From an uncultured Candidatus Rokubacteria bacterium (lineage in GTDB: Bacteria > Methylomirabilota > Methylomirabilia > Rokubacteriales > DASRDR01), in the NCBI GenBank assembly GCA_963826115.1, contig CAWGVS010000005.1, positions 2,016,001 to 2,080,000 of the forward strand: a stretch of DNA of 64,000 bases, given 5' to 3'. Under the pieces are notes generated by a model. The model did no database searches. It had not been told where the DNA came from and worked only from the letters and a program-made list of their open reading frames with translations. This document shows, piece by piece, positions 17,436-19,697 of this stretch. The position numbers were made by a program, and so were the translations under genes. Position 1 is the stretch's first letter. Every line of letters begins with the position of its first letter.

Positions 17436-18089
17436 TCAAGCCGGCCGTGCGGGTCGCGGCGCGAGCGCGGCCTCGGGAGCGGCCCGCCGGGCGCGGGCCC
17501 GGGCGCGGCGCACCGCGTCGACGATCCGGACGGCGAAGAGGAGCGCCAGCCACGCCGCGTAGTAGTACGGCCCGCGCACGCCGACCTTCGCGAGCCAGAA
17601 GTAGTGGAGCACGCCCAGAATCCCGATCAGGTAGACGAGGCGGTGGAGGCGCCGCCACGCGACCCCGCCGAGCCGCCGGATCATGCCCGCGGTCGAGGTC
17701 GCCGCCAGCGGGAGGAGCAGAACGAGTGCCGTGAAGCCAACCGTGACGTACGGGCGCTTCACGATATCGGCCGCCATCTCCGGCCAGTCGAAGAAGTGGT
17801 CGACGACGAGCCACACGCTGAAATGCAGGAGCGCGTAGAGAAAGGCGAAGAGTCCGAGCAGGCGCCGCAACGTCACGGGCCACGACAGACCGAACAGGAT
17901 GCGGAGGGGCGTCATGGTGAGGGAGAGCAGCAGGATCCTCAGGGTCCAGTCGCCCAGCGTGTCCGTCGCCACGTCGATCGGATTCGTGACGAGCGGATCG
18001 GTGAAGAGCCGCCAGAGAAGGCTCGCCAGCGGGGTGAGGCACCCCGCCCACACGACGGACTTCAACCCGATCCGTTGCGGGCGGGTCAC
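17436..18089 (-). CDS. msrQ: Protein-methionine-sulfoxide reductase heme membrane subunit
   Basis: RRLLGLFAFLYALLHF, KRPYVTVG, WRRLHRLVY, LHYFW. Confidence 0.92.
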   Translation of the reverse strand: MTRPQRIGLKSVVWAGCLTPLASLLWRLFTDPLVTNPIDVATDTLGDWTLRILLLSLTMTPLRILFGLSWPVTLRRLLGLFAFLYALLHFSVWLVVDHFFDWPEMAADIVKRPYVTVGFTALVLLLPLAATSTAGMIRRLGGVAWRRLHRLVYLIGILGVLHYFWLAKVGVRGPYYYAAWLALLFAVRIVDAVRRARARARRAAPEAALAPRPARPA

Positions 18090-18111
18090 GTTTGCGGGGG
18101 CTCCGACGCGG

Positions 18112-18702
18112 CTACGCCCGCCCCTGGTCGGGGCAGTCGCGGCGGTCCGGGTCCGGTCGCGAGTGCCGCCAGAGACCCTGCGACGGCACCCGAAGCGCCC
18201 GGTTGAACTTGCTGGACGCGTTCTCCCACGCGATCACCGCCGTCAGCTCCACGAGGGCGTCGTCGTCGTAGAAGCGGCGAAGCCGGTCGAAGAGCTCGTC
18301 GCCGACCTCGCGATCGCTGAACGTCATCGCGTCGGCGTACTCGAGCGCCGCGCGCTCCGCGCCGTCGTAGAATAGGCTCGTCGCGTAGCCCGGCAGCGCC
18401 AGGATCTTCTCCTCCGGCACCCCGAGCGCGCTGCCCACGGCAGCATTGATGTCCTGTCAGAACCCGCAGCCGTTCAGAAACGCCACGCGCCGGTTGGCGA
18501 GGGCCTTGAGCCTCTCGTCGATCAACCCGGAGGCGCCGATGCCCGCCCACATCCCGCGTGCGCCCCGAAAGATCGAGGGCCGGCGCGCGTACACGAGGTG
18601 ATTCAGGAGAGGAGCGCCCCAGTGCTTTGCCTGCGCGGCCAGCACCTTCTCGGCGTAGTCGTCTCCCGCCTCGCCTGGCCGGACACCCTCGACGCGGGCC
18701 AC
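18112..18702 (-). CDS. CMD/AhpD-like protein, predicted selenoprotein (C-G-F-U; UGA at 18457-18459)
   Basis: GTG start 20 nt after the msrP stop. ...RRVAFLNGCGF-TGA-QDINAAVG... continues in frame into the CMD C-terminal half (ERAALEYADAMT...LVELTAVIAWENASSKFNRAL). The UGA occupies the second Cys of CxxC. 197 codons. Confidence 0.85.
18430..18459 (-). promoter_or_regulatory. Putative bacterial SECIS element
   Basis: UGA-CAGGACAUCAAU-GCUGCC(GUG)GGCAGC: 6-bp stem from +13, loop begins with G. Confidence 0.7.
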
Positions 18703-18722
18703 CGCCTCTGCCCTCCCCGCGC

Positions 18723-19697
18723 CTAGTACTGCTTCTTCAGATCCATCCCGGCGTAGAGGGACGCGACCTGGTCGTAGCCGTTGAACATGAGGGTCTTCCG
18801 GCGGCGGAACTCGCCGATCCGCCGCTCGGTCGCCTGGCTCCAGCGGGGGTGGTCCACGTTCGGATTCACGTTCGAGTAGAAGCCGTACTCGGCCGCCGCC
18901 GCCTTGTTCCAGCTGGTCTTCGGCTCGTCGGCGACGAGCCGGATTCGGACGAGGGACTTGGCGCTCTTGAACCCGTACTTCCAGGGCACCACCACGCGGA
19001 CGGGGGCGCCGTTCTGGTTGGGAAGCACGTGTCCGTACATCCCCACCGTGAGGAGCGCCAGGGGGTGGTTCGCCTCGTCGAGGCGGAGCCCCTCCACATA
19101 CGGCCAGTCGAGCGACGAGCCGAAGAAGCTCGGCTTCGTGCCCGGCATCTGCTCGGGGTCGACCAGGGTCTGGAACTCCACGTACTTGGCGGCGCCGGTC
19201 GGCTCGACCCGCTTGAGAAGGGCCGAGAGAGGGTAGCCGATCCACGGGATGACCATCGACCAGCCCTCGACGCAGCGGAGCGCGTAGACGCGCTCCTCGA
19301 GCGGCGCCAGCTTCAGGATCTCGTCGATGTCGAAGGTCTTGGGCTTCTGACAGAGGCCTCCGACGTCCACCGTCCACGGCCGGGGGCGGAGCGTGTGGGC
19401 GTTCAGCGCCGGGTCGGACTTGTCGGTCCCGAACTCGTAGAAGTTGTTGTACGTCGTGACGCTGTCCCAGGGCGTGGGCGGGTCGGTCACGCTCACCGCC
19501 TGGTTTCGGGTCGCGGCCAGAGGCTGGCCCTTCACCGCCGGCTTGAGCGCGGCTTCCGCCGGAGCGTTCGAGCCTCCGACCGTGGCCGCGGCGGCCGCGG
19601 CCACGCCGGCCATGAAGGCCCGGCGGTTCAGGTACACCCCTCGCGGCGTGATCTCCGACGGGCGCGGATCGTGTGGTCCTGGAACGCGGATCAGCAT
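18723..19697 (-). CDS. msrP: Protein-methionine-sulfoxide reductase catalytic molybdoenzyme
   Basis: Tat motif [51 protein letters not shown]. Confidence 0.96.

Follow-up and report, generated by a model that had tools for sequence, protein, structure and literature searches.

What is a selenoprotein gene doing between the two genes of a methionine-repair system, and does it serve that system? The question is raised by a stretch of 64,000 nt (hereafter the window) from an uncultured Candidatus Rokubacteria bacterium (assembly GCA_963826115.1, contig CAWGVS010000005.1, positions 2,016,001 to 2,080,000), whose minus strand carries msrP, a gene of the carboxymuconolactone decarboxylase (CMD)/AhpD fold with an in-frame TGA, and msrQ, separated by gaps of 20 and 22 nt. 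The original prediction had described this co-oriented run, without stating its strand, and had read the TGA as selenocysteine (Sec) and the three genes as a chlorine-stress unit whose middle product is co-regulated with MsrPQ or feeds it electrons. We confirmed the layout, and both MsrP and MsrQ score above their NCBIfam cut-offs within the single gene run. What the locus offers is a selenoprotein family already known, set in a variant of the known msrPQ operon that is peculiar to one genus. In our judgement the CMD protein is probably a cytoplasmic oxidant reductase that is co-transcribed with msrPQ, works in parallel with MsrPQ and is dispensable.

The sequence evidence identifies the TGA as a Sec codon. 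It is the only TGA in a 196-aa frame and falls at codon 82, the second position of the CxxC motif (NGCGF-U-QDINA), as had been predicted. To place this column we compared 119 homologous loci, drawn from the genus and its sister family, from four records belonging to other phyla and from the top 80 among 583 metagenome matches; TGA occupies the column in all 119, which span several phyla. Among the 120 database proteins listed, 78 start past the column (including the window's own 108-aa fragment), 30 carry Trp, 5 carry Cys and the remaining 7 show some other residue or a gap, which bears out the expectation that gene callers would split the gene. Reading TGA as Trp was considered and rejected: the 30 Trp proteins all come from short JGI contigs and, because every one of the 119 DNA loci has TGA, the Trp probably reflects the gene caller's choice of code. 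The genome encodes the full Sec machinery, with selA, selB and tRNA-Sec (selC) grouped on contig C8 and a selD that itself contains a TGA on contig C5; selA is present in 14 of 14 congeners. Purifying selection acts on both sides of the TGA, with a dN/dS of 0.19 before it and 0.18 after it across 13 genus copies (0.12 for msrP and 0.22 for msrQ). The assignment follows from the selABCD set, the invariant TGA, the Cys homologues and a selenocysteine insertion sequence (SECIS)-like hairpin with frozen codons. We give almost no credence to the idea that the TGA ends translation or was misread in sequencing, leaving a pseudogene or two gene fragments; a 108-aa product could begin at a GTG at codon 89 and the hairpin is ordinary on energy alone, but that reading runs against the TGA loci across phyla, the equal selection on both sides, the Cys homologues, the complete machinery and a single continuous high-confidence fold.

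SelB would read the UGA as Sec through this hairpin, which lies 13 nt downstream. A hairpin after the TGA had been anticipated and is there, with its support coming from conservation and not from stability: folding energies compared with shuffled sequences gave z values of -1.4 to +0.65 over five stretches, which is not exceptional. By contrast, the five stem pairs are retained in 117 of 119 loci, as against 5/119 and 0/119 for shifted controls, and the GT of the loop is present in 119/119. Codon freezing is an independent sign, because conserved residues force part of the stem. Among the best 80 of the 583 metagenome homologues Ala87 is written GCT in 78, compared with 16 at Ala74 and 4 at Ala102. 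A paralogous clade has a stem at the same offset with a different sequence.

The protein is of a kind already known. It belongs to the curated selenoprotein family NF053654, 'YciW-related (seleno)protein' (GroundWater_YciW), scoring 316.8 bits over residues 2-179 (311.1 in a six-frame search) against a cut-off of 310. It shares the CxxU motif with the members of that family, and differs from them in genomic address alone. The sister-family members above the cut-off lie on contigs other than that of msrP or in genomes without a listed msrP match. The original prediction had put some 115 family-like codons after the TGA; 114 codons do follow, of which the family-like part stops near residue 179, and the last 17 residues form a variable, low-confidence tail. 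AhpD-like (COG2128/TIGR01926) and CMD-like (PF02627) selenoproteins with CxxU have been tabulated in two surveys (PMC13188914, PMC9312934), and those reviewed there have the fold class and the Sec position seen here. The first of these reports a Methylomirabilota genome with 63 predicted selenoproteins; 'MsrP' is not mentioned in it, and its operon section names only pairs of Prx-like and AhpD-like genes. Searches of the accessible literature, largely at the level of listings and abstracts, turned up no account of a CMD gene within msrPQ.

The predicted structure is a single confident domain to about residue 180 (mean predicted local distance difference test score, pLDDT, 92.9), matching the folds of Bmp8 (template modelling score, TM, 0.79), PA0269 (TMt 0.91, root-mean-square deviation 1.1 A) and Atu0492. 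Neither a signal peptide nor a membrane helix was evident by hydropathy; together with PF02627 and the fold this upholds the cytoplasmic CMD/AhpD-fold protein that had been proposed. Like canonical AhpD proteins (M. tuberculosis AhpD, PA0269, RclX/RcsA) it combines the helical fold with a CxxC-type centre; unlike them it has Sec in place of the second Cys. PA0269 is described as using a relay of five residues, Glu-Cys-(His/Tyr)-Cys-His (PMC3141380). The corresponding positions here, by offset from PA0269, are Ala67, Cys79, Phe81, Sec82 and Asn86, so that the set of five is not retained and the relay Glu, Tyr/His and His have become Ala, Phe and Asn. As only the two redox positions of the relay remain, we call the protein AhpD-like and not a canonical AhpD, and the canonical models score below their cut-offs (TIGR00778, 12.7 bits against 27.8; TIGR01926, 16 against 81.8). 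The AhpD-family protein RclX/RcsA guards P. aeruginosa against hypochlorous acid (HOCl) (PMC7950407, PMC9751292), which indicates that such a protein can by itself protect against HOCl. Unlike the window gene, RclX forms a single-gene operon under RclR. The best solved relative is Bmp8 (PDB 6OHI/6OHJ), by sequence (E 4.6e-12) as well as by fold, from which the window protein differs in having 25% identity, Asn in place of the His that follows the Bmp8 CxxC, and no halogenase neighbours among 100 scanned flanking ORFs of homologues.

How far does the gene order reach? It is complete in 11 of 14 congeners; in another a contig end interrupts the msrP-CMD pair, and the remaining two, G006 and G007, have no gene at that position. 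Outside the genus we looked at 127 genomes, out of about 151 in which msrP gave a match, family f8 being left out, and found a CMD gene between msrP and msrQ in 0 of the 127 msrP loci. There msrQ was seen in 124, with a largest msrP-msrQ gap of 406 nt. Thus the neighbourhood that had been proposed for a wider survey stands within the genus and goes no further: the msrP-CMD-msrQ order belongs to one genus alone. The copies from this genus group as a single clade (94/85), and its nearest neighbours are an Acidobacteriota record and metagenome proteins and not the commonest sister-family orthologues, in a tree that left out closer sister-family members found later. Among the best 80 of the 583 metagenome homologues, msrP or msrQ is adjacent in six, all of them 79-94% identical to the window's; neither gene lies beside the other 74, with at least 330 nt available on one side, and no shared neighbour appeared among the 100 flanking ORFs scanned of 137 picked. 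We also observed that at 6 of the 9 sister-family loci examined, namely L020, L022, L024, L026, L027 and L028, the orthologue adjoins an ArsR-type regulator of 230-275 aa.

One congener appears to have discarded the gene. In G006 a 72-nt msrP-msrQ gap encodes the first CMD residues fused to the bases preceding msrQ, and for 6 of the 7 congeners tried this scar matches better than any of 200 shuffled sequences. G006 is nested in the tree of MsrP plus MsrQ and retains selA, which rules out loss of the gene through loss of the Sec trait; G007 lies at the base of the genus without a resolved placement. These features suggest that G006 deleted the CMD gene, which would make it dispensable for MsrPQ there. 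The junction accepts other inserts as well: G003 has a DUF1330 gene there, three congeners have non-coding stretches of about 240-290 nt, and the msrP-msrQ gap exceeds 100 nt in 19 of 124 loci outside the genus. A second msrP-CMD-msrQ copy, on contig C11, was considered as a duplication and rejected: some 175 kb of this 239-kb contig align to other parts of the assembly, nearly all collinear with the end of C5 at about 76-88% identity, and C11 is most likely a co-binned congener. A truncated CMD paralogue also lies in the window (39630-39869, minus strand), its similarity ending at the codon before the TGA of an intact copy on C11.

Transcription of the locus seems to have changed in the genus. 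In its relatives (msrP loci L054-L069 and L081-L211, outside the genus) a conserved box, TT(G/C)ACA(C/T)-N4-GTGAC followed 15-17 nt on by a TACACT-like hexamer, heads msrP or its operon, and a response regulator presumably binds it. Using a matrix built from 19 such sites, which makes this count partly circular, we found a box within 350 nt of msrP in 33 of 124 outside loci, further upstream in 30 and none within the flank examined in 61. Of 5 sister-genus loci, 4 have it immediately ahead of msrP (scores 30-37), whereas of 16 genus loci none does (best score 13.1; 14 scanned over 1.5 kb upstream and two over 0.5 kb). Positions 17000-24200 of the window give no box score above 3.5 and hence, for this box, no HprSR/SigF-type regulator site, and a sigma-70 consensus scan of 16800-24200 found no promoter. 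The same genome has two boxes scoring 29 at a distance of 1.1 Mb (G000:C5:917925 and 918427, minus strand), ahead of a DUF2282/BufA-like peptide and a module of TlpA-like protein, kinase and regulator. The genus operon therefore seems to have left the box regulon and to be read now from upstream genes. An AT-rich inverted-repeat pair lies at about 20940-21020, between the methylenetetrahydrofolate reductase (MTHFR) and CoA-transferase genes, with related elements at the same place in some congeners; as a promoter it was set aside, not being conserved across the genus and having a core that occurs eight times in the genome. Spacing and conservation make it likely that msrP, the CMD gene and msrQ are co-transcribed. 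The idea of co-regulation with msrPQ survives to that extent, without the box of the relatives.

Outside the genus a different CMD selenoprotein meets the same operon. This paralogue, which has Sec and lacks the first Cys (motif SxY-U or AAY-U), precedes msrP at 5 of the 127 outside loci, in four genera (L064, L065, L119, L181 and L196, from G024, G045, G092, G031 and G113). It scores 107-121 bits, below the NF053654 cut-off of 310, and occurs in 48 of 201 genomes. CMD selenoproteins have thus joined msrPQ at least twice, and a functional tie stays plausible for that reason. All five loci encode a Met/Lys-rich exported peptide, compared with 5 of the 122 others, whose flanks are mostly shorter; among other loci refetched with longer upstream flanks the peptide is found in 4 of 19. 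None was found in 14 genus loci. In 4 of the 5 the paralogue has the box upstream of it (scores 14.6-26.3), and most of the five also carry a TlpA-like selenoprotein and a kinase. An exported TlpA-like gene is more widespread, occurring in 44 of the 127 outside msrP loci (38 with TGA, 3 with Cys, 3 where the position was not seen), often with a kinase and a regulator. In the window's genome, locus L303 (G000:C5:914500-919000) encodes an exported TlpA-like UxxC selenoprotein, a kinase and a regulator, with the DUF2282/BufA-like peptide ahead. A second copy of that peptide (95% identity) lies past the regulator, and a partial match to the chlorite dismutase family is found about 10 kb away. The window itself has a TlpA-like redoxin with an in-frame TGA (UxxC, W-U-GPC; 56483-56896, minus strand), and two more lie on C2 and C6. 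The operon type that joins the Met/Lys-rich peptide, the Cys-less CMD selenoprotein and msrPQ is probably more interesting than msrP-CMD-msrQ itself.

That operon type resembles mrpX-yedYZ, a hypochlorite-scavenging operon (PMC4436054), and for E. coli msrPQ a third gene and an HOCl sensor have already been described (10.1101/2021.09.09.459708). E. coli hprSR(hypVW)-hiuH-msrPQ and Azospira yedY1Z1-mrpX each add a third co-transcribed gene to msrPQ, as would the window, where co-transcription is likely. Relatives of the genus resemble these operons further in having a two-component system and a Met-rich peptide near msrPQ. The window differs from both: its extra gene stands between msrP and msrQ and encodes a cytoplasmic selenoprotein, and the locus has no sensor, box or Met-rich peptide.

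Several accounts of the placement compete with a parallel reductase. CMD selenoproteins could be the cytoplasmic arm of a chlorine defence built on MsrPQ, with the insertion kept since joint induction pays; this is a distinct possibility, though an unlikely one. It draws on the five outside loci with their peptide and box, on the known operon of MrpX and yedYZ and on the association of AhpD-like genes with chlorite dismutase neighbourhoods. That evidence, however, comes from the other paralogue, which is beside msrP in only 5 genomes of the 48 that carry it, and genomes of related organisms are not independent events; the genus has neither box nor peptide at its operon, and its TlpA-kinase-regulator module lies far from it. 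The three-gene chlorine-stress unit of the original prediction lacks the support of the box in the genus, and may keep a footing through other genera, where the paralogue shares msrPQ operons with the Met-rich peptide. At the opposite extreme the gene might be a neutral lodger in an insertion-tolerant junction, with a function unrelated to oxidised methionine or chlorine, such as a Bmp8-like reductive dehalogenase or an enzyme for another small substrate. We consider this quite improbable. The DUF1330 gene, the non-coding inserts and the wide outside gaps agree with it, as do the ArsR-type regulator beside the sister-family orthologues and the fact that the best match in sequence and fold is the debrominase Bmp8. 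Yet that fold match is no better in kind than the AhpD-like ones, the mutant Bmp8 structure replaces the first Cys where the Sec here is at the second position, and the presence of two CMD clades next to msrPQ within a single order is, by our estimate, too much for one accident.

Very improbable, in our view, is direct partnership, in which the selenoprotein, once reduced, would bind MsrQ from the cytoplasmic side and provide its electrons, or would aid the maturation of MsrP. A cytoplasmic protein encoded between both subunits with gaps of about 20 nt would be well placed, and MsrQ has no dehydrogenase domain of its own. Against this, MsrQ is reduced via flavin mononucleotide (FMN) by an NADH-flavin reductase, or else by quinones (PMC12525009), and the MsrQ encoded here keeps the FMN-binding arginine pair, which makes a thiol or selenol protein an unlikely donor. 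Moreover, the CMD protein has no flavin- or NAD-binding domain, 124 of the 127 outside loci have msrP and msrQ without such a gene, and G006 kept both after losing it. The suggestion that the selenoprotein feeds MsrPQ found no support in this comparison. With the order confined to one genus, no fixed neighbour, the box missing and MsrQ fed by flavin or quinone, both an electron partner and an inducible chlorine unit are left without support.

The account we prefer, a parallel and dispensable reductase, would run as follows. Members of NF053654 usually stand alone at many different addresses; one copy may have landed between msrP and msrQ early in the genus and been inherited vertically since. 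The three genes would probably be transcribed from the CoA-transferase gene or from further upstream, since the genus lost the box that heads msrP in sister genera. The Sec82 selenolate could reduce a small oxidant (peroxide, HOCl or chloramine), after which Cys79 would resolve the product to a selenenylsulfide that a cytoplasmic thiol system would re-reduce; in M. tuberculosis AhpD the second Cys is reportedly the attacking one. The selenoprotein would thus act in parallel with the periplasmic MsrPQ and with its own electron supply, and MsrPQ would be independent of it. Several points weigh against this account. Both the co-transcription and the activity are things that we infer. Three of the five AhpD relay residues are gone (A67, F81, N86), which leaves peroxidase chemistry not assured; a selenolate requires no activating base, though the Cys homologues likewise carry Asn at 86. 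G006 is a 68%-complete assembly, and its deletion could be an assembly error. A missing box also leaves room for some other stress regulator. Finally, retention in at least 11 of 14 congeners, together with a second CMD clade in 5 of 127 msrPQ loci, suggests a closer tie than parallel action.

The features of the locus are collected in Table 1.

Table 1. Features of the msrP-CMD-msrQ region, in window positions
Feature	Positions	Strand	Details and basis
msrP, periplasmic molybdoenzyme	18723..19697	-	324 aa, Tat-like N-terminus; NCBIfam NF003767, 474.7 bits (cut-off 207)
CMD/AhpD-fold selenoprotein gene	18112..18702	-	196 aa, GTG...TAG, C79-x-x-U82; NF053654, PF02627, fold
In-frame TGA, predicted selenocysteine codon 82	18457..18459	-	homologous loci, Cys homologues, dN/dS
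SECIS-like stem-loop	18430..18444	-	13 nt past TGA; 5-6 bp stem, GT in loop; pair conservation, frozen codons
Shine-Dalgarno-like GGAGG for CMD gene, within 20-nt gap	18712..18716	-	sequence; duplex energy -11.3 kcal/mol
msrQ, membrane haem/FMN subunit	17436..18089	-	217 aa, GTG start; NCBIfam NF003831, 155.5 bits (cut-off 130)
Family III CoA-transferase gene	19711..20898	-	PF02515; ends 13 nt before msrP
Homocysteine methyltransferase/MTHFR gene	21027..22901	-	PF02574 + PF02219; conserved upstream neighbour of locus across family

The N-terminus of MsrP scores 16.3 bits against the Tat signal model TIGR01409, slightly below its cut-off of 16.7. MsrQ keeps RR75-76 and four His, and its ribosome-binding site is weak (Shine-Dalgarno energy -5.8). 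The CoA-transferase gene is the immediate upstream neighbour of msrP in every genus locus examined and probably shares its transcript. The upstream neighbour conserved across the family is a methionine-synthesis gene. On the other side msrQ is followed by an 87-aa gene without a Pfam family (17084-17347, minus strand), preceded by a TG(T)GCTA-like site (17393-17403, minus strand) that is conserved in 10 of 10 genus loci shown and may be a -10 element of its own; the operon accordingly probably ends at msrQ. Elsewhere in the genome ARAGORN called a 73-nt tRNA-Pyl (CTA; G000:C12:686301-686373), which has no normal 5' arm and could be spurious.

The spacing of the genes raises a further idea, that in Rokubacteria CMD selenoproteins are a recurring cytoplasmic arm of MsrPQ chlorine defence in which translation of msrQ is gated by Sec read-through. 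We offer this as speculation that is more likely wrong than right by a wide measure. Recruitment would then have happened at least twice, a Cys-less clade coming with a Met-rich sacrificial peptide and a CxxU clade entering the operon itself. Across the genus the msrQ ribosome-binding site is weak (median -5 kcal/mol versus -10 for msrP and the CMD gene) and the msrQ start usually lies about 22 nt past the CMD stop, so that msrQ translation may depend on ribosomes that have passed the UGA. The 4-nt overlaps with the msrQ start made by the mini-frame of the G006 scar and by the CMD tail of G010 fit such coupling, and gaps of 82 nt in G005 and 296 nt in G001 do not. Were coupling of this kind real, as the spacing hints, selenium supply would control the molybdoenzyme repair of periplasmic methionine.

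Overall, these results have a direct use for annotation, in that the split gene leaves two meaningless fragments between msrP and msrQ. For a family of unknown function, the placement within msrPQ is a testable lead towards defence against reactive chlorine or peroxide. The candidate box and the operon type of exported peptide, Cys-less CMD selenoprotein and msrPQ connect the use of selenium with envelope repair in this uncultured lineage.

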